A stretch of DNA of 64,000 bases from Candidatus Spongiisociaceae bacterium (GCA_965262915.1 OZ253564.1:640001-704000), one strand, 5' to 3'; counted from the first letter of the stretch, positions 34,369 to 53,473 are shown. A program made the numbers and translations. The notes: generated from the sequence alone by a model not told the origin.

Positions 34369-34800
34369 CTACGACCTTCGTCGTTGACGCCGCCGCCTAT
34401 GCCCCTTGCGGTGCGGTCTGGACCCGTTGTTCACGAACGCGCCGACCAAGAGCAGGAGTACGGCGATCAGGAGGACTCCCAGCATTATGGGTATCGCCGC
34501 CAACGCCGAGATGACGAGCCCGGCGACGGCCCACTCCCGTCCCTCCTTCGCGCCCCGGGCGCCGTGGAGCCCCGCCCAGGACAGCGACGCCCCCACCAGG
34601 ATCAGGATCACGCACCACGTCACCGGCTGCCCTGACGCCAGGAACCTCACCAGGTTCGACCAGGTCCACCCGTGGCTGAACCACCAGGCGGTCTGCAGCG
34701 CCGCGGCGGCTAGGGCGACGACGAAGCCCGCTACGGGTAGGGTGCCCGACCAACCGGGATGCGGTCGGTAGACCTCTAGATATTCTCGTGTAGCCATCAC
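34369..34800 (-). CDS. Small membrane protein (paralogue of 52434-52862)
   Basis: Three or four hydrophobic segments; GGAGAGG upstream; conserved duplicate. Confidence 0.7.
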   Translation of the reverse strand: MMATREYLEVYRPHPGWSGTLPVAGFVVALAAAALQTAWWFSHGWTWSNLVRFLASGQPVTWCVILILVGASLSWAGLHGARGAKEGREWAVAGLVISALAAIPIMLGVLLIAVLLLLVGAFVNNGSRPHRKGHRRRRQRRRS

Positions 34801-34952
34801 ACACCTCTCCTGCGGGTGCGGTATCCATATCTGTGTGATTCCAACTGTATGGGGTGGGTGTGACAGATCGCCGCGGCAAGGTCTGCCGATCCTCCCGATA
34901 TGCTCCCCCCGGTACTAGCGGATGGCCCCGAGCAACGGGCCGGGCGCCACGG

Positions 34953-37023: not shown

Positions 37024-37265
37024 GCTAGTTGGACTGTCGGGGCGGGATTCGAGTTCCACCTTGTCGAGCGTGTCCCTCAACTGGTGGTGGGCTATCACGC
37101 GGTAATGGGGCTCATCGCGTTTTAGTGGGGTGTGACGGTGGCGAGTGGGTCCCAGTTGGGTTTCCCCGCGTACAGGAGTGCCCGGATTAGGTAGTTCGCG
37201 AAGTTGCGGAACCCGAAGGCTGCTCGTTTGATGCGTTTGATGGCTCATCGATGCTCCTATGGTTG

Positions 37266-38495
37266 TCAAATCGATGATGGGGCGGTTTGGTGGGTGTGCA
37301 GCCAGTTCTGGTATCGGGTGGCGAGGTGGTGGTTGTGGTCTCGGCCGTGTTCGAGTGCTGAGATGCGATTGGGGTGGGTTCCGACGGCTTGGGCGGTCTG
37401 GGTGAGGGTGATGCCGCGTTGTTGGCGTCGGGTGCGTAGGCGGGCGCAGTTCGGGGTTGGGTGCGGGTTGGTGAGGAGCCGGTAGATTTCTCGGGCGATG
37501 TGCCGCTTGAGGCAGCGGATGATCTCCTTTTTCTTCTTGCCCTCGGCCTTGCGTCGTGCCACGTAGGCTTTGGTGGCGGCGTCGGTGCGCATCCGGGTGG
37601 TAGCGATCCGCCATAGCGCGTTGTTGGCTTGGCGGTTGCCGCCCCGGTTGAGACGATGCCGAAGGGTTCGTCCTGATGACGCCTGGACGGGGCTGGCGCC
37701 GCACAGCGCCGCGAAAGACCGTTCCGATTTCATTCGCTTGGGGTTGTCGCCGGCGGCGACCAACAACGCGGCGGCTGTGTCAGGACCGACACCTTCTGTG
37801 GCCAGCAGGGCCGGGTTGGCCTGGGCGCAGAGACGCCGGATCTCGGCTTCGAGTTGGGCGATCTCTACGTCGAGGGCCTGATACCGGCGGGCCAAATGCT
37901 GTAGGGCACGCTTCGCATACGCGGTGGTGGTGTGGTCTGTGCCGGGTCGGAACCGGGCACAGGTTTTGACCCGTGCTTTGAGATTCATGCCCTTTAGCTG
38001 GTGTTTTAGCGGCTCGGGAGCTGTTACGACCAGCGCATGTATCTGGTTAGCGGCCTGGGTGCGGGCCTTGACCGCGGAGCGGCGCACCACCCACAGCATC
38101 CGTATGCACTCGACCGGGCCCACACCGGACTTGGGAACCGCGGTTGCTTCGCCCGAGGCAGCTGCCCGAGCTGCCGCCTCGGCGTCGACGCTGTCGGTCT
38201 TGCCGCCCTTCTGGCGGCGTAGTTGGCGGTTGGGGCGGTTGACCTCCACCACCTCGATGTTCATCTCGGTCAGGTAACGGGCCAGGCCGGCGCCGTAACT
38301 ACCCGTTCCTTCCACCCCAACCCGAACCAACTGTCCCCGCGACTCGAACCAGGTGACCATTCGCCGATAACCGGATTCCTCCACCGCGAAAGACTCCGAT
38401 CCCAGTACCCGCCCGACGCCATCCACCACCGCTGCTACGTGGACGTCCCGATGGGTGTCAACCCCACCGTAGATAATCTGGTCTGCTTCTCCCAT
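37266..38495 (-). CDS. IS110 bridge recombinase with C-terminal XRE-like HTH
   Basis: DEDD (GVDTH, GVEGT, KTDSVD), ASSG serine loop, then LRTRRQQRGITLTQTAQAVGTHPNRISALEHG. Confidence 0.95.
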   Translation of the reverse strand: MGEADQIIYGGVDTHRDVHVAAVVDGVGRVLGSESFAVEESGYRRMVTWFESRGQLVRVGVEGTGSYGAGLARYLTEMNIEVVEVNRPNRQLRRQKGGKTDSVDAEAAARAAASGEATAVPKSGVGPVECIRMLWVVRRSAVKARTQAANQIHALVVTAPEPLKHQLKGMNLKARVKTCARFRPGTDHTTTAYAKRALQHLARRYQALDVEIAQLEAEIRRLCAQANPALLATEGVGPDTAAALLVAAGDNPKRMKSERSFAALCGASPVQASSGRTLRHRLNRGGNRQANNALWRIATTRMRTDAATKAYVARRKAEGKKKKEIIRCLKRHIAREIYRLLTNPHPTPNCARLRTRRQQRGITLTQTAQAVGTHPNRISALEHGRDHNHHLATRYQNWLHTHQTAPSSI

Positions 38496-44561: not shown

Positions 44562-46341
44562 CCTGAATCCACCGACGGCCTCCCCGGGGGGTGGTCCGGG
44601 TGCGGTTGGTGGGGGGTTGAGGGGTTGGAGCTGGTTGGTGTCGGGAACTTTTGGGGGTGTGGTGCGTGTGGTTTGGTGGGTTAGATCATGTTGGAGGCTG
44701 GTTGGGGTTGTTTCTGGCGTGTGTGGCTGGGGTTTGGGTGGTTGGTTATGGTTGTGGGGGGTGTGTGGGGCCGGGTTAGCAGAGTTGGGGCAGCGCCCGG
44801 AGGTTAGTGAGGGTGGTTAGGTAGGTGCCGGCCCAGGGCCATCGGGCGGGTAGACGCACGAGGCGGCGTCCGCTGTGGTTGACGACCCGTCCAGGGAGCC
44901 CGAACAGTCGGGTACGGATTGTGCGTCCACAGACCAACCGCCCAGCCCGATGCGTTCCGCCGAGGAGGCCTATATGGCGGTAGAGGTTATGGGCCAGAGC
45001 GGCGCACAGCAGCCAGGCGGCGTTAGCTGCGAAGACGCCGGAGGGTAGGTGGGCGAGACCCCCGGAGTCTTTGAGGTCGCGGATGGCGAGTTCGCATGTG
45101 GCGTGGCGGCGGTGGTACCGGTCGGCTTCGACCACGGCCGTCCCGTTGTTGTCCTTCCGCGGGTTGTCACCGATCTCTGTAGCTGGCAGTTCGGCCACTT
45201 CGGTGTCTTGTCCGGCCCGGGGTTGGTGGTGCTGGTCGGCTTCTGCCGTGGCTAGGTCCAGGTTGGTGACGAAGGTGTGGTGACGCCAGTCGGGGAACAA
45301 CTCGGCTTGGGAACCGAGCAGGCGGGTGCGGCGCACCACGAGACGAACCCTGCGTTTCTGCGACCGTTTCCGGGGGTTGGTCATCTCCAGGACGGTTTCC
45401 GCGACCTGTGCCTGGCCGCCTTCGGGATAGGCGATGGGGACCCACGCGTCTTTGTCGATATTGTTGATCAGTGTCCTGACCTTGTCGTTCACCTGGCAGG
45501 TGATCGACCAGCCCACCCCGAGTTTGTCGAGGGCGGCCAACATGGCATAGGACCAGAACCCTGAATCGGCCCGCACGCTCACCGGGCCCCTGGCCCCGGC
45601 CCGTCGCACACGCCGGATCGTCTCCCCGACGAAATGGACCACACCCCTCTGCGATGCTCCTGCACGCAGACGGGCACCGACCACCTCCCCCGTATCGGCT
45701 CGGAACGCCAACAGAGGGTGATAACCCAACTCTTTGGTGTAGCCGTAAGCGGCCCCTTGTTTGGTCTTGCCCGACACCGCACAGATCGTCGAGTCCACAT
45801 CAACGGTCACCGCACCATTGGAGGGACCGGCACCCGCCCGCCACGCCCGGCCCAGCGCCGAGGTCAACACCTTCTCCAACTGGCGTACATGACCCCAGGT
45901 GAACGAACGCAGGAAGGTTCCCACCGTGGACGGGGCCATCACCGCATGGGGCAACACCCGGTCGGTGGAACCCGCCCGGAGCCGACCCACATGGTCAATA
46001 TGGGAGCCGCCCACCAGCATCGCAGCTACCACCGTGCACACCTTACGACCCGGATTCGCTCCACCCACCCGGCCACCCAGGCACACCGTCCGATCCACCA
46101 AATCTTCCAAACCCAGCCGGTCCATCAACGTCCCGGCTACCAGCAGCCCCGCGTCGGCCACCAACCCCTCATCGTCGAAAACCACCTCATACCGGTCGAT
46201 ATTCTGCAATACTTCACTCACAGGAAGTGCCTCCTGACTCCGGGCCAATAACCTTGTTTCGTATCGCTATTGTCCCAGATCAGAGGCACTTTCCGCGTCT
46301 ATCCACCCCCAACCACAGGATATCTACCAGGTGGATTCAGG
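44562..46341 (-). mobile_element. Complete IS1380-family element
   Basis: IRs CCTGAATCCACC / GGTGGATTCAGG; CTAAG duplicated on both sides. Confidence 0.93.
44776..46248 (-). CDS. IS1380 transposase
   Basis: VDVDST, GYHPLLAF, VRADSGF, CELAIRDLK..LPSGVFAANAAW. Confidence 0.93.
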   Translation of the reverse strand: MARSQEALPVSEVLQNIDRYEVVFDDEGLVADAGLLVAGTLMDRLGLEDLVDRTVCLGGRVGGANPGRKVCTVVAAMLVGGSHIDHVGRLRAGSTDRVLPHAVMAPSTVGTFLRSFTWGHVRQLEKVLTSALGRAWRAGAGPSNGAVTVDVDSTICAVSGKTKQGAAYGYTKELGYHPLLAFRADTGEVVGARLRAGASQRGVVHFVGETIRRVRRAGARGPVSVRADSGFWSYAMLAALDKLGVGWSITCQVNDKVRTLINNIDKDAWVPIAYPEGGQAQVAETVLEMTNPRKRSQKRRVRLVVRRTRLLGSQAELFPDWRHHTFVTNLDLATAEADQHHQPRAGQDTEVAELPATEIGDNPRKDNNGTAVVEADRYHRRHATCELAIRDLKDSGGLAHLPSGVFAANAAWLLCAALAHNLYRHIGLLGGTHRAGRLVCGRTIRTRLFGLPGRVVNHSGRRLVRLPARWPWAGTYLTTLTNLRALPQLC

Positions 46342-46739
46342 CTAAGTGGGGTCTTCGCGACCACCCCTGACCAGGGGTAATGGTAGGGGTCCCACGAGCC
46401 TGTCACCTCCTCAACCGGAATCTGTCACCTTGTATCACCAACTGCGAATCGAACGGCTTAGCCGGGCGTGGCCCTCGTCGCTCACTTGGATTCCCCCACC
46501 CGCCGGACACCAACTCGGTCGTCTCCAGCCGACATCCAGGCTCGTAACAGATTAGGGACCATGTGGAACCGGTCCAGGACATGGCGGGTGTCGGGCAGAT
46601 ACTGCGCGATAGCGGCCTGATAGGAACGTGACCCGTCCGACACGACTATCTCCACCCGCTGGCACCAGCGTTGCCCGTGTTCGCGTAAGAACCTGCTCAG
46701 AGACGTGTTGGTGGGGCCTGGGCACTATCCTCACATGCC

Positions 46740-47138
46740 ATGCCTGTGAAAGTTGTCGGTGTAGGAACGTTGGACGGCTACCGCATCTGGGTCCGCTTCG
46801 ACGACGGAACATCCGGCGACATCGACCTAGCGCATCTGGCTGAAATGCCCATGCACAAACCGTGGCATGACCCAGCCGTGTTCGCGACGGTCCGGGTCGG
46901 CCCATACGGGCACTCTGTGATCTGGTACACGCCGCCGGTCGATGTTGATCTGGTCGCCCACTGGCTGTACACCGAAATAACAGGCGTGACGATGCCGGAG
47001 TTGATGGAACGGCAGGGCATCAAACCGCCGGGTCGTTTCACGCACTGGCAGATCAAACAGTGGGAAAGGTGGTGGCGTCTCCTACGGCACCTACGCCGTG
47101 GAAGACGCCAGCCACGCTCAGCAGGTGACCATGGTTGA
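46740..47138 (+). CDS. DUF2442-family protein (putative antitoxin)
   Basis: VVGVGTLDGYRIWVRFDDGTSGDIDL..F..V..SVIW..DL..WLY. Confidence 0.8.
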   Translation: MPVKVVGVGTLDGYRIWVRFDDGTSGDIDLAHLAEMPMHKPWHDPAVFATVRVGPYGHSVIWYTPPVDVDLVAHWLYTEITGVTMPELMERQGIKPPGRFTHWQIKQWERWWRLLRHLRRGRRQPRSAGDHG

Positions 47139-47385
47139 GCTAGACCGCTTGCGCGACGGGGACATCCGAATATGTATGTTCGTGGACCACCCCCCGCCGC
47201 ACATACACGCATACCAAGCGGAGCACGAGCTGGAGGTAGACATCAAAACCTTCTCCACCAAAGGGAGAATGCCTAAGACGCGAGCAGCGCGAGTGGTCAG
47301 CTATGTAAGAGAGGATCAGCAGGCTCTTCTAGATGCCTGGGACTCGCTCGCTCGGGGAGTCACCCCATCTCGACTGGACCGCTGA
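47131..47385 (+). CDS. DUF4160-family protein (putative toxin)
   Basis: IRICMFVDHPPPHIHAY..G.MP..LLDAW. Confidence 0.8.
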   Translation: MVELDRLRDGDIRICMFVDHPPPHIHAYQAEHELEVDIKTFSTKGRMPKTRAARVVSYVREDQQALLDAWDSLARGVTPSRLDR

Positions 47386-47742
47386 ACCTGCCACCACCAC
47401 CCCGCAACCACCGCCACACACCAGCCAATTCCACCCCGAACACCCCGAAATAGGCCAGAATCCCCACCAACATCCCTAACCCGCGAACTCAACACCCCAC
47501 AACACGCGAAGACCCCGTTGTGGGATGTTCGCCACCATCCCTGACCTGCGGTGATACGACCATGCCCACGGGGACTTCCACATTAACAGTGGGGGGACTT
47601 CCACATTCGGCAGCCAGCCTCCACCCTCCGCCCGCGGGTCGTTCCCGCGTCCGGTGGTGTAGTCTGCGTGATAGGCGACCCGTCCGGCGAGACTAGTGTG
47701 CCTGTCCCTTCGGTACGCCGATTGGAAGGGAGGAGAGAGCGC

Positions 47743-48123
47743 ATGGTCGCAGCAACTACATCAAACCCCGACGTAGACGTGTACACCGACCGGGACGGCC
47801 GGCGTTACGTAGTCGACGGTCGCCTACCCCCCGGCGACATGAAGTACGTGACCCGTGTCAAGCCCCTCCGGGGGCTTCGCTTATGGGTCGAGTTCCGTGA
47901 CGGAACCAGCGGCGTCGCCGACCTGTCGGAAATATCGGCCGCGTCGCACCTCGCGGCGGCCCTGTGGTCGGACCGGGAATACTTCGAGACGGTTCATGCA
48001 CTCGACGGCGGCGGCGTCTCCTGGGAAGACGAACGCTACGACATGAGCCCTCTCGTGCTTTACATGCTGGTCACCGGCAAACCTTTAGACGAAGTATGCC
48101 CACAGGTCAGATACCTCGACTGA
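47743..48123 (+). CDS. DUF2442-family protein
   Basis: VTRVKPLRGLRLWVEFRDGTSGVADL..YFETV..GVSW..DMSPLVLY; AGGAG upstream. Confidence 0.8.
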   Translation: MVAATTSNPDVDVYTDRDGRRYVVDGRLPPGDMKYVTRVKPLRGLRLWVEFRDGTSGVADLSEISAASHLAAALWSDREYFETVHALDGGGVSWEDERYDMSPLVLYMLVTGKPLDEVCPQVRYLD

Positions 48124-48124
48124 C

Positions 48125-48399
48125 ATGCCCAGGCTGTCCACGTTCTATGGCATCGCCATCTACATGTATTACAGCGAACCCCATCTGCAGCCCCACTTCC
48201 AAGCCGTCCACGCCGGTAAGGAGATAACTGTAAGAGTCGCGGATATGAACCTTCTTGCCGGCGGCGTAGGGGCCATTTCGACACGACTGCATGGAAACGG
48301 GTACAGAAGTGGGGATGGCTACACCAAGCGGAGCTGTTTGACCGTTGGGAGACTAGGAGCCGGGGAGGGGAGCTCCCCCCGATAGCTCCCCTCCGGTAA
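48125..48399 (+). CDS. DUF4160-family protein, frameshifted near 48270-48300
   Basis: MPRLSTFYGIAIYMYYSEPHLQPHF then, in another frame, VQKWGWLHQAELFDRWE..PIAPLR*. Confidence 0.8.
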
Positions 48400-48841
48400 G
48401 AACCGCTCGTGATGCCATTCACCTGCCTCCTGCTCCGGGCCGTTTCACCACAACCACCCCGAACACCGCCACAACCGGCTCTAAGACCCCCGAAACCACC
48501 CAAAACCCCGACCGAACCCCCTAACCCGCGAACTCAACACCCCACAACACGCGAAGACCCCCTGGTGGGGTCTTCGCGACCACCCCTGACCAGGACCTTA
48601 GCCAACAGCCAGGGGAGGACGTCACCTGCAGGGACACGACTACGTCACCTCACCTCAGTGGCTGAGAAGGCGGCGAGGCTAGCCCGGTACGGCTAGTTTG
48701 CTGATCGTCAGCGGCGCCAGTTGGCATCAATTGCCAGATGGGCATGGAGCGGCGGCGGAAGCGTCACGGCTGCCGCTGAGCAAGGGAGTTAGAAGTGATC
48801 GAAGTAGGTGACCCGAGGTCAGATGGCGACCTTCCTGCACC

Positions 48842-49114
48842 GTGCGGGCGTTCAGTGACATGAAGGAGCATTATCACTGTGTCCACACCTTCGGCAAGGA
48901 CAAGGTTGTCGGTGCACGTTGCTGGAGCAAGCATGGCCGTCCCGACCTAGCCCTGCGGCATCGCCGCAACAAGGAGGAGTTTCGTGAGATGTTGGTCAGG
49001 TGGGGGACCGTGCGATGCGAAGGCAATTGCTCTGACTTCACGCGGTGGAAGGAGATACCGGCGTGGAGGGTCATATGGCTGGAAGCTCCTCGTCCAGTGG
49101 ACGGTGGGCAATGA
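48842..49114 (+). CDS. Hypothetical protein
   Basis: 90-aa ORF inside cassette 3; no recognised motif. Confidence 0.3.
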   Translation: MRAFSDMKEHYHCVHTFGKDKVVGARCWSKHGRPDLALRHRRNKEEFREMLVRWGTVRCEGNCSDFTRWKEIPAWRVIWLEAPRPVDGGQ

Positions 49115-49262
49115 AGCGGCTACTCGCCACGGCCGGAGTGGTGTGAGTGCTGGTGGGTTCTGCTCCCCCGGTAGGGGGCGGGCGGCCCTAGAGCGATCCG
49201 TTAGACAGACTGTTGACGTGTCAGTCCCGCTACTGAGGGAACGTGGGAACAGCGTGGTTGCC

Positions 49263-50614
49263 GAGGCTGCGCGAAAACGTGGGTTTTGGCTGTGCTGGCG
49301 CTCGGTGTGGGGTCATGTTACGAGGATTCCTCGGGCGGCGTAATTGTCGTAGTTGGTGAACCCGTGGGCGACGCGTCGTAGGACTTGTAGGAGGTTGTTG
49401 ATCCCTTCGATGGGTCCGTTGGATACCCGTCGTCGGGTGGTGTGGTAGGCCAAGATCTGTTCTCCCCATGCGATGATGGTGTCCACAACTTGGTGGTATT
49501 CGGGTATCTGTCCGGTGGCGTAGAGATCGGCGAACCGTCCTAGGGCCTGGTTGGCCCCGTCGAGGTCTTCGGCTTCGTAGAGCTGGTAGAGCTCTTGGAG
49601 CGCGTCCCACGCGGTTCGGAGACGGGGATGGGCGTCGAAGATCCGGTCGAGATGGCTCTGGTGGGCGTCTGTGAGATGATCGGCCCGCCGCAGCAGGGTG
49701 AAGCGGGCTCGGAACAGGTCAGGTTCGAACGTTGGGGGACGCTGATCGGGGTCGCGGCGCTGGAGCTCTCTTCGCACGAGGGTGAGGCCTTGGGTGAACC
49801 AGCGGGCGACGTGAAAGCGGTCCAACACATGGCGGGCACCGGGAAGGTATTGCGCGATGGCAGCTTGGTATGAGCGGGACCCATCGCTGACAACTATCTC
49901 CACCTGCCGGCACCACCAGACCCCTTGATCCCTGAAGAACCTGGACAGGGACCCTTTCGTGCGGCCTGGGATCATCGCTAAGATCTTGCCGCTCTCACCG
50001 CAGACGATCACGGTCACATACCGATGCCGGCGCCGTATCGACGTTTCGTCGACCAACAGCACACGACACGGACGGGCCCGGCGACGCTTCGCCACCACAG
50101 CCGCCTCCGCTCTCACCAGGCCCATGATCCGATGCCACCCCACTCCGTGGTGACGGGACGCTGCCCGAATCGACATCACCCTCGCATCTGCCACTAGGCG
50201 GCGGGCGAACCGGCGGGTAAGCCCACCGGCGAACTGGTCGTGGTCCTGGAGGTGGCGCTCCCCGCAGTTCGAACATTCGAATCGGCGACGCCTCCACACC
50301 AGCGTTGCACGGCGGCCGCTCACCCCAAGATCACGAACCCTCTTCGGTCTCCTGTCCCACACCCGAAAGCAGCGGAACCCGCAATGGCGGCACCTCGACC
50401 ACTCCCGGGTTGATTCCACCTCCACCTCGAGGCGGTCAACAGAATCGACCCCCACCCCCCTCACGCGAACACCCCACAGGTGCAAACGAACAGACATAAC
50501 ATCAGACATCGAGGCCTCCCTGGACCGGCGAGCTAGTACTTCACCGATTCCAGCGAGGCCTCACCCCCATTCCAAGGATTTCACCCCACCCAACCCACGT
50601 TTCCGCGCAGGGCC
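49263..50614 (-). mobile_element. Complete ISL3-family element (second type)
   Basis: 23-bp imperfect IRs (..CTGCGCG(A/G)AAACGTGGGTT); 8-bp TSD TGGTTGCC. Confidence 0.93.
49313..50509 (-). CDS. ISL3 transposase
   Basis: CRHCG..CSNC, LVDETS, LDRFHV, SNGPIEGINN..AHGFTN. Confidence 0.93.
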   Translation of the reverse strand: MSDVMSVRLHLWGVRVRGVGVDSVDRLEVEVESTREWSRCRHCGFRCFRVWDRRPKRVRDLGVSGRRATLVWRRRRFECSNCGERHLQDHDQFAGGLTRRFARRLVADARVMSIRAASRHHGVGWHRIMGLVRAEAAVVAKRRRARPCRVLLVDETSIRRRHRYVTVIVCGESGKILAMIPGRTKGSLSRFFRDQGVWWCRQVEIVVSDGSRSYQAAIAQYLPGARHVLDRFHVARWFTQGLTLVRRELQRRDPDQRPPTFEPDLFRARFTLLRRADHLTDAHQSHLDRIFDAHPRLRTAWDALQELYQLYEAEDLDGANQALGRFADLYATGQIPEYHQVVDTIIAWGEQILAYHTTRRRVSNGPIEGINNLLQVLRRVAHGFTNYDNYAARGILVT

Positions 50615-50657
50615 TGGTTGCCTCTACCCTGATCACAGAGCCTTGGAATCGTCGTGC

Positions 50658-52088
50658 ATGAGTAGTACTAGTGATTCCACAAAGCTCGGCACGTTGCTAC
50701 GTGAATGGACTGATTCGGAGTTCTGTGGCGATCTGGACCGTGTATTGAGCTCGATTCCTCGCTTGCTGAATCTGCCGAGCTATAACTTCCGTCATGGCTT
50801 GTGCCCAGCCCTGCAGTCCTTGGATAGTCGTATAGCGGGGATCGGTTTGCACAATCTGGAGTGGCACGGCGGAATCCCTCGCATGCCGCTCGCGCCATCG
50901 TTCGAATCGATCAGTAGGCCCCTTGAGCATGTGGCATACAGTCTCAGCGTATCTGACTCACCGCGGCGGCTGATGTCATATCAGGTGGCAGCAGGCGCAG
51001 GAAGCCATCTTGAGCAATGTGTGAAGAGGGTCCCAGAGGCGCCTCAGCGAACGCCGTTAGGGGGACTCGTACAGCCGAGCCAAGGTCGAGTCATCAGCAT
51101 CCTTGGGGAGAGGCTCAGCCGTTCTATCCGTGAGTACGCCCGTTTCGCCAACATGCCAAAGCACGTATTGGCGGATGGACACAACGAGGAATCACCGATC
51201 AGCTTCATCGTGGCCGTCAGGTCGTACTTTGTGTCTCGTGCCCTCGGTGCCCGTGTTCTGGAGAAACTCGGAATCCTCGATGACCTCGCAGCTCAGACCC
51301 AGGACGCGGCCCGGTTTGGCCGATTTGACACGGATAGCGACACAGCGGATCCCGTAACTTACCTGCGGGATACGGGTCCGGCCGAAGCAGTAACTGTCCG
51401 ACCTATCGACGTTCGCGCCCTCCCCGACTTCGGAGACTGGTTGGAGAACCTTCGGTCACCCACACGAATAGCGGTTTTCGCAGCGATACAGCGACTGGCC
51501 GACGCCTACGGCGACGAGTTGGCTGGCCCACATGTTGTGCCTTGAGGAAGAAGGGCGTTTCTCTTGAGGCCCGAAACGCCAGCCCATACGTTATCAGTCG
51601 TATTCTCCCAGCTATGGGGGGACCAGGCGGTCCTCCTGTTCGGCGTGAACGACTGGGACATGGAGAAGCGACCCCTGAAACATATGCGCATGGCTATGAG
51701 GCGACGCCGTCAGGCAGCACGCTCAAGGGGAAGGACGGTCACGTTGTCCGACCTGATCGGCCATCTCAACAAGGAGACGCAGATCGAGTTCGATGCGGCT
51801 ACGGCCTACGCAGCAGCAGTCTCTATCGGATACCAAGAGCGGCAGATAAGCCAGGCACGGAGGCTGATACAGGTTGACTTGGACTTCATAGACAAGATGC
51901 CGACGAACGTAACCGACTCAACGCCAGACGATGACAACCCGGCCTACTACCACAGAAGAGCCTTGGCCTCGCTCAGGCTAGGCCCCGACATGCTGGCAAA
52001 CCTCCCGTACGAAGAACGCGTCCCCTTGGTACCGGTGCACCAGCGTGTACCTCCAAAGGCATGGGAGACGTGGCTGCAACGCGACTGA
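50658..52088 (+). pseudogene. Unknown protein fused to a RelE/Gp49-like toxin domain, frameshifted at 51540-51620
   Basis: FGDWLENL..AAIQRL..GDELAGPHVVP, then EAR..SRIL and AVLLFG in successive frames. Confidence 0.5.
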
Positions 52089-52433
52089 ATTAGGCGCTCG
52101 GACCAGATACGCAAAGTGATAATCGGGCAGCCTCACCAACCCAACGCCCGGGCCAGTCCACACCCACCCAGAACCGCCCCCTAGACCATCATCGGCGACC
52201 CACCACGCTGAACACACCCGAACACCCCTGAAACAGGCCAAAGATCCCGCCAACACCCCTAACCCGCGAACTCAACACCCCACAACACGCGAAGACCCCT
52301 AAGTAGGGGCTGGAGCCCATAGGGGTCTTGGCGACCGGCATCGTCCTGGCAGTCCTGACCTAACCCGTACTAGCGGCGAACGGTGGTCACGCGTCGGCAG
52401 GGTCGCTGGCCGTGTCGCCGTCCGGATGCAGCG

Positions 52434-52862
52434 CTAGCGGATCCTTCGTCGCCTGTGGTGCCCGGCTCTCCTGTGCCGTCCCCTCCCGCTGCCCACGAAC
52501 GCGTCGATCAGGAGCAGGAGTACGGCGATCAGGAGGACTCCCAGCATTATGGGTATCGCCGCCACCATCGAGATCGTCAGTCCGGCGACGGCCCACTCGC
52601 GGCCCTCCCCGCCGTCCCGGACGCTGCGGAGCCCCGCCCAGGATAGCGACGCCCCCACCAGGATCAGGATCACGCACCACGTCACCGGCTGCCCTGACGC
52701 CAGGAACCTCACCAGGTTCGACCAGGTCCACCCGTGGCTGAACCACCAGGCGGTCTGCAGCGTCGCGGCGGCCAAGGCGACGACGAAGCCCGCTACGGGT
52801 AGGGTGCCCGACCAACCGGGATGCGGTCGGTAGACCTCTAGATATTCTCGTGTAGTCATCAC
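52434..52862 (-). CDS. Small membrane protein (paralogue of 34369-34800)
   Basis: Highly similar protein and upstream DNA. Confidence 0.7.
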   Translation of the reverse strand: MMTTREYLEVYRPHPGWSGTLPVAGFVVALAAATLQTAWWFSHGWTWSNLVRFLASGQPVTWCVILILVGASLSWAGLRSVRDGGEGREWAVAGLTISMVAAIPIMLGVLLIAVLLLLIDAFVGSGRGRHRRAGHHRRRRIR

Positions 52863-53473
52863 ACACCTCCCCTGCGGGCGCGGTGTCCATATCTGTGTGA
52901 CTCCAAATGTATGGGGTGGGTGTGACAGATCGCCGTGGCATGGTCTGGAGTTGCCCCGCTTTTTCGGACACTTCGCGATTTGTTATCCACAGGGTGGTTG
53001 GGGACTCGGCTCGTAGTCTACGGGTGAGTGGTATCCGATGGCTGAGTGCCACCGGTGGGGTTGTAGAAACCTTCGATGTAGTCGAAGACGGCGGAGCGGG
53101 CCTGGTTCCGGGTGGCGAAGCTGGTCCGGTCCAGGAGTTCGGTCTCGAGGGTGGCGAAGAACGACTCGGCTACCGCGTTGTCGTAAGCGTCGCCTCGTCG
53201 TCCCATCGATACTGCGATGCCGGCTTGGGCACAGCGGGCCCCGAACGCCCCCGAGGTGGGTTGGGAACCCCTATCCGAATGATGGATCACCCTCTCCGGC
53301 CGTCGGCGTGCGATGGCCATGTCCAAAGCGTCGGTGACCAGCGGTGTAGCCATGTCATCTCGCATGGACCATCCAACGACCCGCCGTGACCAGACATCGA
53401 TCACAACCGCGAGGTACCCGAACCCTGCTCCCGTCGGGACATACGTTATGTCCGATACCCAGGTTCGGTCTGG

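Follow-up and report, generated by a model that had tools for sequence, protein, structure and literature searches.

The window considered here is a stretch of 64,000 nucleotides (G000:C1:640001-704000) from the genome of Candidatus Spongiisociaceae bacterium (GCA_965262915.1, OZ253564.1; 5.06 Mb, 64% G+C), a genome referred to below as G000. Its subject is an array of three small ‘cassettes’ along with the transposon family to which these would seem to belong. An earlier note, generated from the sequence alone, had described the array as three head-to-tail units, and that is indeed what is read from the sequence of 46200-52500 (Table 1). Two of the units start with a common left end, an exact 25-mer found at 46348 and 48567 (expected number 0, from 100 shuffles). 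The left end of unit 2 is instead a variant, 80% identical to that 25-mer, which it shares with elements E3 and E4, located in the same genome at 1.597 Mb. All three units close with one and the same 43-bp right end, occurring exactly three times (expected 0), and inverted-repeat comparison confirms that the outer 12 bp of the units are inverted repeats. Spacers of 5 bp stand between the units, and TAAGT is found on both flanks of the array as a whole, both as had been described.

What the units carry differs. Units 1 and 2 each possess a DUF2442 gene followed by a DUF4160 gene, and the earlier reading of these as two DUF2442/DUF4160 pairs is borne out by Pfam matches above cut-off for both. 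Such a pair is listed as the type II toxin-antitoxin system dhiTA in a table of PMC8198452, and the window pairs, going by their adjacent domains, are presumably of dhiTA type. Unit 3 was thought to hold a RelE/Gp49-like fusion, a claim which has to be given up: its open reading frame (ORF) is without a Pfam match at E <= 0.01, while reading through an in-frame TGA as X gives, at E <= 1, a single, irrelevant match (E 0.31). The ISL3 insertion sequence (IS) within unit 3 is as had been proposed, that is, with a transposase recognized by Pfam and with inverted repeats of its own, flanked by the 8-bp duplication TGGTTGCC. Beyond their ends the units are mutually dissimilar in an all-against-all BLASTN comparison, save for a short ISL3-related stretch shared by units 1 and 3. 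The 64-kb window contains no tRNA genes and no match to a profile of the transposase described below, and its 45500-53000 portion has no Rfam match at gathering score.

Table 1. Features of the window array, in window positions, and other G000 loci bearing ends of the same family.
Feature	Position	Strand	Description
Left TAAGT duplication	46343..46347	.	Flanks whole array; IS1380-like IS end reaches ~46343
Unit 1	46348..47516	+	1169 bp, non-autonomous; left end from 46348, right-end 43-mer 47474-47516
ISL3-type transposase gene fragment, unit 1	46556..46722	-	72% identical to 49804-49970
DUF2442 gene, unit 1	46740..47138	+	132 aa, Pfam E 7.5e-8; antitoxin-like partner
DUF4160 gene, unit 1	47098..47385	+	95 aa, Pfam E 1.1e-10; toxin-like partner
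Spacer GTTGT	47517..47521	.	Reverse complement ACAAC; probable relic duplication of an earlier tRNA site
Unit 2	47522..48561	+	1040 bp; variant left end GGGATGTTCGCC..., standard right end
DUF2442 gene, unit 2	47668..48123	+	151 aa, Pfam E 2.6e-7
DUF4160-like gene, unit 2	48125..48385	+	86 aa, E 2.8e-5; match covers profile positions 1-41 of 65
Spacer CTGGT	48562..48566	.	Reverse complement ACCAG, i.e., discriminator A, then CCA, then G
Unit 3	48567..52299	+	3733 bp, or 2373 bp once the ISL3 copy and its duplication are subtracted
Secondary ISL3 insertion, unit 3	49263..50614	-	Transposase 49313-50509; duplication TGGTTGCC at 49255-62 and 50615-22
Cargo ORF, unit 3	50643..52088	+	481 codons, in-frame TGA at 51543-51545; no assigned family
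Right TAAGT duplication	52300..52304	.	Flanks whole array
Left-end-like 15-mer	52322..52336	+	GGGGTCTTGGCGACC; in front of a paralogous gene family
Element A	G000 476-479 kb		Single element
Solo ends	G000 537 kb and 767 kb		
E array	G000 1.596-1.604 Mb		Elements including E2, E3, E4
F array	G000 1.661-1.690 Mb		Elements F-1, F0, F1, F2, F3, F4
G array	G000 4.155-4.182 Mb		Includes a 26-kb composite

The ends are found well outside the window. Searched with nhmmer profiles, G000 yields 21 left ends (E <= 0.01) along with 13 right ends. In line with a check that the earlier note had suggested, ends thus recur at more than 30 places in that genome, with cargo differing from element to element. 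Ends thus are what the elements have in common, and in all-against-all BLASTN the cargo is otherwise unrelated, apart from a few pieces that are 99% shared (A with F0, and unit 2 with the G locus). Elements of the family range from 1 to 26 kb including cargo, and their ends begin with GGGG or GGGA, with terminal inverted repeats of 12-14 bp. The left end forms a hairpin, the stem of which covaries between two subfamilies (GGGGT..ACCCC versus GGGATG..CATCCC), and a second right-end type reveals that the right end contains an 11-bp box in two direct copies, which are separated by about 26 bp. Among 41 genomes searched, G000 included, 13 possess these ends (6/7 for genus g1 and 6/8 for genus g7, both counted without G000), and they are absent from all 16 searched genomes of other families. 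Further arrays are present in two genera, and exact 5-bp junctions are seen in 5 of 29 genomes of the family, again with G000 included, a control pattern giving 0. The idea that the window units are non-autonomous mobile cassettes, sharing ends while differing in cargo, stands: they possess the ends of elements F2 and F4, lack a transposase, and form an array flanked by TAAGT.

So too does the idea that such arrays ‘stockpile’ toxin-antitoxin-like and defence genes, based on Pfam matches of cargo in the window and in other elements. DUF433 is found in three proteins of the family's cargo, standing in F1 beside a sub-threshold DUF5615 match (E 0.0017), and the cargo includes as well a DUF6036/AbiEii-like nucleotidyltransferase, an MmeI-family enzyme, and a Fic protein. 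F4 possesses a defence-like block (L009:4717-13967; G000 1665717-1674967) in which a 1203-aa Eco57I/TaqI_C methylase adjoins a 1065-aa SNF2 helicase that has a PLD nuclease domain, together with a 664-aa protein without family. The cargo of the L050 element, from another genome, includes an RCC1-repeat protein.

That no cognate transposase is to be seen, as the earlier note had it, is true of the window but not of the genome, where three autonomous copies encode a DDE transposase at the same right end. These copies are F2 (4967 bp), F4 (13.7 kb), and that part of G which is proximal to the tRNA. Autonomous copies possess, at about 200 bp from their right end, a gene pair, first a gene for a protein of 315-317 aa and then one for a protein of 576-600 aa. 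This pair is retained down to a transposase identity of 35% (L049). Searching G000 with a profile of the larger protein, 596 aa in F2, identifies three intact copies, each at that distance from a right end. Remnants of its C-terminus adjoin the right ends of E2, F1, and F3, and at least these non-autonomous elements thus are deletion derivatives. Relatives of the 596-aa protein number 26 by a word-indexed search and 1341 clusters by profile search (E <= 0.001). Invariant in 17 transposase sequences are D213, D336, and E511 as well as Y504 and R507, and between the second D and the E lies a zinc-finger-like insert, CPQC...CC. A structure model (pLDDT 71) has as its best fold match the Tn5 transposase 1muh (E 2.7e-3, probability 0.99, TM 0.30/0.38), and a sequence-profile search of the Protein Data Bank returned nothing useful for this protein. 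We infer from these features that the 596-aa protein is a Tn5/IS4-like DDE transposase that acts on these ends.

Whole elements and whole arrays are flanked by matching 5-bp duplications. In G000 these are TTGGT/TTGGT for element A, TAAGT/TAAGT for the window array, GCCGT/GCCGT for E2 and likewise for the E3-E4 pair, and GGAGC/GGAGC for the 26-kb G block. In other genomes they include TTCGT at all four positions of a run of three elements, ACCGT/ACCGT, AGTGT/AGTGT, and, at L050, GCCGA/GCCGA around a single 4.8-kb element that has 13-bp inverted repeats and a transposase only 33% identical. At the F locus 5-mers alternate with elements in the order GCTGT, F0~F-1, TGCGT, F1, TCTGT, F2, GCTGT, F3, TGCGT, F4, GCTGT. 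Junctions between a right end and the next left end measure exactly 5 bp in 16 of 21 cases, the other 5 being 7-21 bp or ambiguous, with ambiguous lengths due to degeneracy of the right terminus. All 8 of the 5-bp junctions of G000 are head to tail. Within the F array, the F0 right end is fused directly to position 21 of a left end (L010:12155; G000 1687155), i.e., ...CCCC joined to TGACCAGG. This looks like a deletion across shared CCCC, with loss of the spacer and of the first part of the element that follows.

In most arrays, the last of the right ends directly adjoins a tRNA gene, namely the 3' end of one encoded on the opposite strand, and does so in one orientation. The right end is found 3 nt past the tRNA end as called by ARAGORN, so that the 5-bp duplication consists of the discriminator base plus 4 nt. 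This register is seen in G000 with tRNA-Met, tRNA-Arg(cct), and tRNA-Glu(ttc), and in other genomes with tRNA-Met (L033, L045), tRNA-Leu (L030, L047), tRNA-Thr (L050), and tRNA-Lys (L056). Of 20 loci chosen by transposase similarity, 15 from genomes and 5 from metagenomes, 13 are accompanied by a convergent tRNA that lies no more than about 400 bp from where the transposase gene ends, the chance expectation of such adjacency being well under 1% (about 50 tRNA genes in 5 Mb). The spacers tell of tRNAs as well, as they equal the discriminator plus 4 nt of the adjoining tRNA, namely ACAGC with tRNA-Met, ACGGC with tRNA-Glu, and GCTCC with tRNA-Arg, along with ACGAA for tRNA-Leu in genome G006. 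Also in G006, a spacer ACCGT matches the ACGGT which follows tRNA-Val(tac), where that array ends. A C follows the discriminator in 48 of 50 tRNA genes of G000 (AC in 22 of 50), and nearly all spacers consequently end in GT. As for the window spacers, the reverse complement of GTTGT occurs after tRNA-Met in genome G001 (L029), and GTTGT and CTGGT both are probably relics of earlier tRNA sites.

The reading that we favor, giving it roughly three chances in four, is that the window units are non-autonomous, cargo-bearing members of a DDE transposon family that inserts at tRNA 3' ends, and that arrays of these members move as composites. Insertion would be one-way, with the right end on the tRNA side and with duplication of 5 bp, and it would take place beside tRNA genes rather than beside resident left ends. 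As both the tRNA gene and the 5-bp target would survive insertion, the same site could be used again, giving rise to a head-to-tail array with equal 5-bp spacers in which the newest member should be the one closest to the tRNA. The two outer ends of such an array, left and right, could also act together, the array moving as a composite and its old spacers being kept. Unequal spacers would thus result from blocks which were assembled at one tRNA and subsequently moved, and the F, E, and G loci would each be derivable by composite moves without coincidence. The window array, in turn, would be a composite of three non-autonomous members, mobilized in trans and inserted at a TAAGT that is not a tRNA site.

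A number of observations weigh against this reading. The weakest point is the window itself, as its array does not lie beside a tRNA and its right flank shows no tRNA-like T arm; its present site would require an off-target insertion or a second pathway. Element B (right end at 537249) likewise has no adjoining tRNA. Element A abuts GCGGGTTCAACTCCCGCAGGAGGCACCA (L014:2200-2302; G000 about 476200-476301), in which a T arm, an acceptor stem, and a CCA-like end can be made out, but this is a tRNA 3' end only in looks: it is called neither by ARAGORN nor by Rfam (E <= 0.01), and no tmRNA is called there, though it may be a tRNA fragment. Seven of the 20 transposase loci are without a tRNA within about 400 bp, some of these being inner array members or fragments, and the register is inexact at L029 (tRNA-Met, 9 nt) and at L049 (tRNA-Val, 10 nt). 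The transposase falls below every Pfam and NCBIfam cut-off, with a score for DDE_Tnp_1_6 of 23.4 bits versus 25.1 (other sub-threshold matches are DDE_Tnp_1 and, far below their cut-offs, the NCBIfam IS1182 and IS5 models), and its TM of 0.30-0.38 makes for a weak Tn5 fold match. The three autonomous copies are only 72-84% identical to one another, so there is no sign of recent activity. Neither transposition nor a circle or empty site of any unit was observed. In sequencing runs from other samples, the contig joints found at the borders of units (47518->48567, 46367->48564, and 48562->47473) cannot be used toward excision or circles, as their sides are 22-33 nt long and lie inside repeated ends. 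Nor is an empty tRNA-Met site demonstrable for the F array, as the 7 other genomes of the genus contain nothing that matches its left flank (L010:14800-15600). Lastly, L050 is located at a tRNA although no recombinase-like gene is detected in it, meaning that the smaller protein of the gene pair, to which we return below, is not needed to explain targeting.

An account in terms of end-targeted insertion was our initial model, as well as that of the earlier note: newcomers would insert in the 5 bp abutting a resident left end, in the manner of IS30, which targets its own inverted repeats, with tRNAs serving as first landing sites only. It would readily accommodate the window array and element B, both of which are away from tRNAs, along with spacers of exactly 5 bp and junctions that are all head to tail, and the covarying left-end hairpin could act as its recognition element. 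Every equal-spacer pattern, however, is explained by re-use of a tRNA site too, the target being regenerated upon each insertion, whereas the fixed register in which arrays end at tRNAs is better explained by that re-use, and it is on this register that end-targeting was demoted. Spacer identity with the discriminator plus 4 nt of the adjoining tRNA also speaks against it. No equal-spacer array was found grown at a site without a tRNA, and the left-end-like motif at 52322, the presence of which is confirmed, does not abut the right duplication but stands 17 nt from it. End-targeting for these reasons strikes us as unlikely. A different thought, mimicry of a tRNA T arm by the left end, was not adopted, the likeness being weak by eye.

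Less likely still, indeed improbable, is site-specific recombination of circular cassettes, with a right end/5 bp/left end junction serving as the core and with the partner protein or a host Xer or integrase as the enzyme, which would make for an integron-like or IMEX-like system. What makes this worth weighing is that the junction, with inverted arms of 11-12 bp around a spacer, resembles a lox, dif, or attC core, that equal-spacer arrays resemble tandem integration at a single att site, that tRNA genes are classic integrase targets, and that one of the proteins encoded by the autonomous elements has the fold of tyrosine recombinases. The latter is the 317-aa partner. It has no Pfam match, and its model (pLDDT 70.8) finds with Foldseek XerA 5hxy (E 1.3e-5), Cre, and XerH, all with probability 1.0, from which it is predicted to have the two-domain tyrosine-recombinase fold. 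A sequence-profile search of the Protein Data Bank returns for it only the XerC-like 4a8e (E 0.37). The 51-52 residues after its RxTWL motif contain no Tyr in 16 of 17 sequences, the single Tyr that is present is not conserved, and the first catalytic arginine aligns with leucine, this in a weak alignment (hhalign against an Xer protein of the same genome, probability 0.5). Lacking the tyrosine, the 317-aa protein cannot act as a usual tyrosine recombinase. Only 5 bp are duplicated, moreover, and the 5-mer varies by site, whereas tyrosine-recombinase strand exchange needs identical overlaps; targets show no arm-like sequences, as seen with element A; and every intact copy has a conserved DDE transposase beside its right end. 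Of the 31 PF00589 matches of G000, none is in the window (640001-704000), and there is no Pfam integrase among the window ORFs that were scanned. The partner as target selector is an idea weakened by L050, tRNA-sited without such a gene. The predicted complex of the 596-aa and 317-aa proteins, with a score of 0.02, speaks neither for nor against it. Perhaps the partner's role is one of end binding or of regulation.

A local, ancient triplication, or decayed IS remnants enclosing genes unrelated to the ends, is scarcely credible despite the IS-rich surroundings and the lack of a transposase for these ends in the window, given ends with different cargo across G000 and in 12 of 40 other genomes, units that are so dissimilar beyond their ends, and matching 5-bp duplications around whole elements.

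Returning to insertion at tRNA 3' ends by a DDE transposon family, how does such a system compare with known ones? The ‘integron-like’ label of the earlier note is apt as to outcome, a stockpile of toxin-antitoxin and defence genes, and not as to mechanism, there being no active integrase and a partner without its tyrosine. As with integrons, small cassettes are arrayed in one orientation, an imperfect palindrome is repeated, and toxin-antitoxin genes are plentiful. Unlike with integrons, IntI is absent and nothing points to attI/attC recombination: what bounds the cassettes are transposon ends with duplications of 5 bp, their border is an inverted repeat of 11-12 bp around 5 bp, duplications at non-homologous targets misfit an attC x attI reaction, and cargo genes point both ways, with upstream regions of their own. 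The same note's suggestion of Tn3-type chemistry is similarly divided. GGGG ends and a 5-bp duplication are present as it said, but the enzyme, with its 596 aa, is not of the Tn3 type: Pfam gives no Tn3 match for it, and by fold it comes closest to Tn5. Tn3-family transposases, furthermore, are of about 1000 aa and act on inverted repeats of about 38 bp, versus the 12-14 bp here.

With the IS4/Tn5 superfamily, of which it may be a member, the family has in common the DDE triad as well as the motif YAGRNPVEG, a Y-(2)-R-(3)-E signature which we take to be that of IS4, and Tn5 transposase is its top structural match. It differs in reaching no family cut-off, in its CPQC...CC insert and recombinase-fold partner, and in being site-specific with a 5-bp duplication. 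Tandem islands built at tRNA genes by tyrosine integrases likewise use a tRNA 3' landing site, with tandem accretion regenerating that site; here, by contrast, 5 bp are duplicated rather than the 15-50-bp att core of such integrases, the partner is without its tyrosine, and a DDE enzyme is present. Tn3-derived MICs and TIMEs (cf. PMC4337579), along with MITEs, are similar in having short shared ends, unrelated passengers, and mobilization in trans, though theirs is another transposase family and the elements described here are site-specific and form ordered head-to-tail arrays.

In behavior, the nearest analogues are Tn7-like elements and the IS1202 ‘dif hunters’. Tn7-like elements (cf. PMC8649781 and bioRxiv 10.1101/2021.02.06.429022) are comparable in being site- and orientation-specific, in leaving the target gene intact, and in having the right end on the target side, a 5-bp duplication, and defence-rich cargo, with some using tRNA attachment sites. 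F2 nevertheless has no rve/TnsB, AAA+/TnsC, or TniQ/TnsD among those four of its six candidate ORFs that were scanned, the four of at least 160 aa (the others being of 64 and 63 aa). Of these four, the ORF of 206 aa matches DUF2442 and that of 596 aa matches DDE_Tnp_1_6 below threshold, while those of 160 and 317 aa are without a match. A single Tn5-fold enzyme would stand in place of Tn7-type machinery, along with many tRNA targets (Met, Arg, Glu, Leu, Thr, Lys, Val), and as tandem arrays are common, there is, unlike with Tn7-like elements, no sign of target immunity. The IS1202 ‘dif hunters’ (ISAjo2) are, according to PMC10132070, elements of 1.5 kb without cargo, with TGT/ACA ends, transposases modeled on TnsB, and an Xer site as target. 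They have in common with the present family a DDE enzyme without Tn7-type targeting proteins, one orientation, a fixed 5-bp distance, and 5-bp duplications. Here instead the fold is Tn5-like, ends are GGGG or GGGA, elements are cargo-bearing and of 1-26 kb, and insertion is at the tRNA 3' end. For the transposon family itself, found in Acidimicrobiia, no description was met with in the literature searched, that search being one to which ISfinder, supplementary files, and subscription journals were external.

A more ambitious proposal may be built upon these comparisons, though it is one that we put forward tentatively, being rather more inclined to doubt it than not. It is that this is a new IS4/Tn5-like family which recognizes tRNA 3' ends generally and without Tn7-type machinery, with cuts placed in register with the discriminator base, which possesses an exapted, ‘dead’ recombinase, and which, its target outlasting every insertion, builds transposable, integron-like arrays of toxin-antitoxin and defence cassettes beside tRNAs. 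That recombinase might be a former tRNA-site integrase, retained as a DNA-binding adaptor. Most of what is known of site-specific transposition beside essential genes comes from Tn7-like elements, and these depend on a CRISPR guide or on several dedicated proteins. In the present family, landing in register at many tRNA genes appears to be the work of one Tn5-fold enzyme, whether or not a small partner assists it. If true, this would represent a compact, protein-only system for insertion at safe sites, and also a second route, beside integrons and integrase islands, by which toxin-antitoxin and defence genes might be gathered into ordered, mobile arrays. A family name and a function are thereby offered for more than 1300 unannotated protein clusters.

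The array can be followed into other samples as well, using contigs of four runs, from four studies, that were aligned to the window; none of the runs listed as containing it is recorded as RNA. Contigs of run X8 span both inner junctions, and the array therefore is present there too. Unit 3 is present in contigs of all four runs but its ISL3 copy is missing from them (joint 49254->50615, 8 nt shared), and this absence is precise, one copy of the 8-bp duplication being absent along with it, which suggests that the insertion is recent or polymorphic. The TGA of the unit 3 ORF is TGG in three of the four runs (51545 A>G), that is, this ORF is broken only in G000 and in the closest sample.

Several smaller observations concern the surroundings of the array, where IS kinds include IS1380-like, ISL3, IS110, and IS4-like. 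To the left, an IS1380-like IS (44776-46343; DDE_Tnp_1_4 transposase of 490 aa, minus strand) terminates in ...GGATTCAGGCT directly against the left duplication, and 11 other IS1380-like copies in G000 share that terminus, followed then by TAG, AAG, or AAA. The right flank is repetitive. Behind the 15-mer at 52322, itself either a relic or a chance resemblance, is a minus-strand gene (52387-53052) with no Pfam match, of which there is a 92% copy in the window at 34423-34885 and a 77% copy outside of it at G000 711116-711414. The right-end resemblance that had been pointed to at 37109 is present, GGGCTCATCGCGTTTTAGTGGGGTGTGA at 37109-37140 being similar to the right-end reverse complement, but the neighboring gene (37266-38495, minus strand) encodes a transposase of the IS110 family and not of ISL3, with a C-terminal HTH; the motif may be a relic of a further family member. 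In genome G006, the copy of the transposase gene that is closest to tRNA-Val breaks off at residue 445, with the tRNA gene following directly (L054:7001-8434), and the right end appears to have been deleted there. Within unit 2, just inside of its variant left end, are two exact 15-bp direct repeats, GGGGACTTCCACATT (47570-47607), 23 bp apart. The first copy of this repeat is found upstream of the cargo of E3 and E4 as well, and the repeats could represent a binding site or operator.

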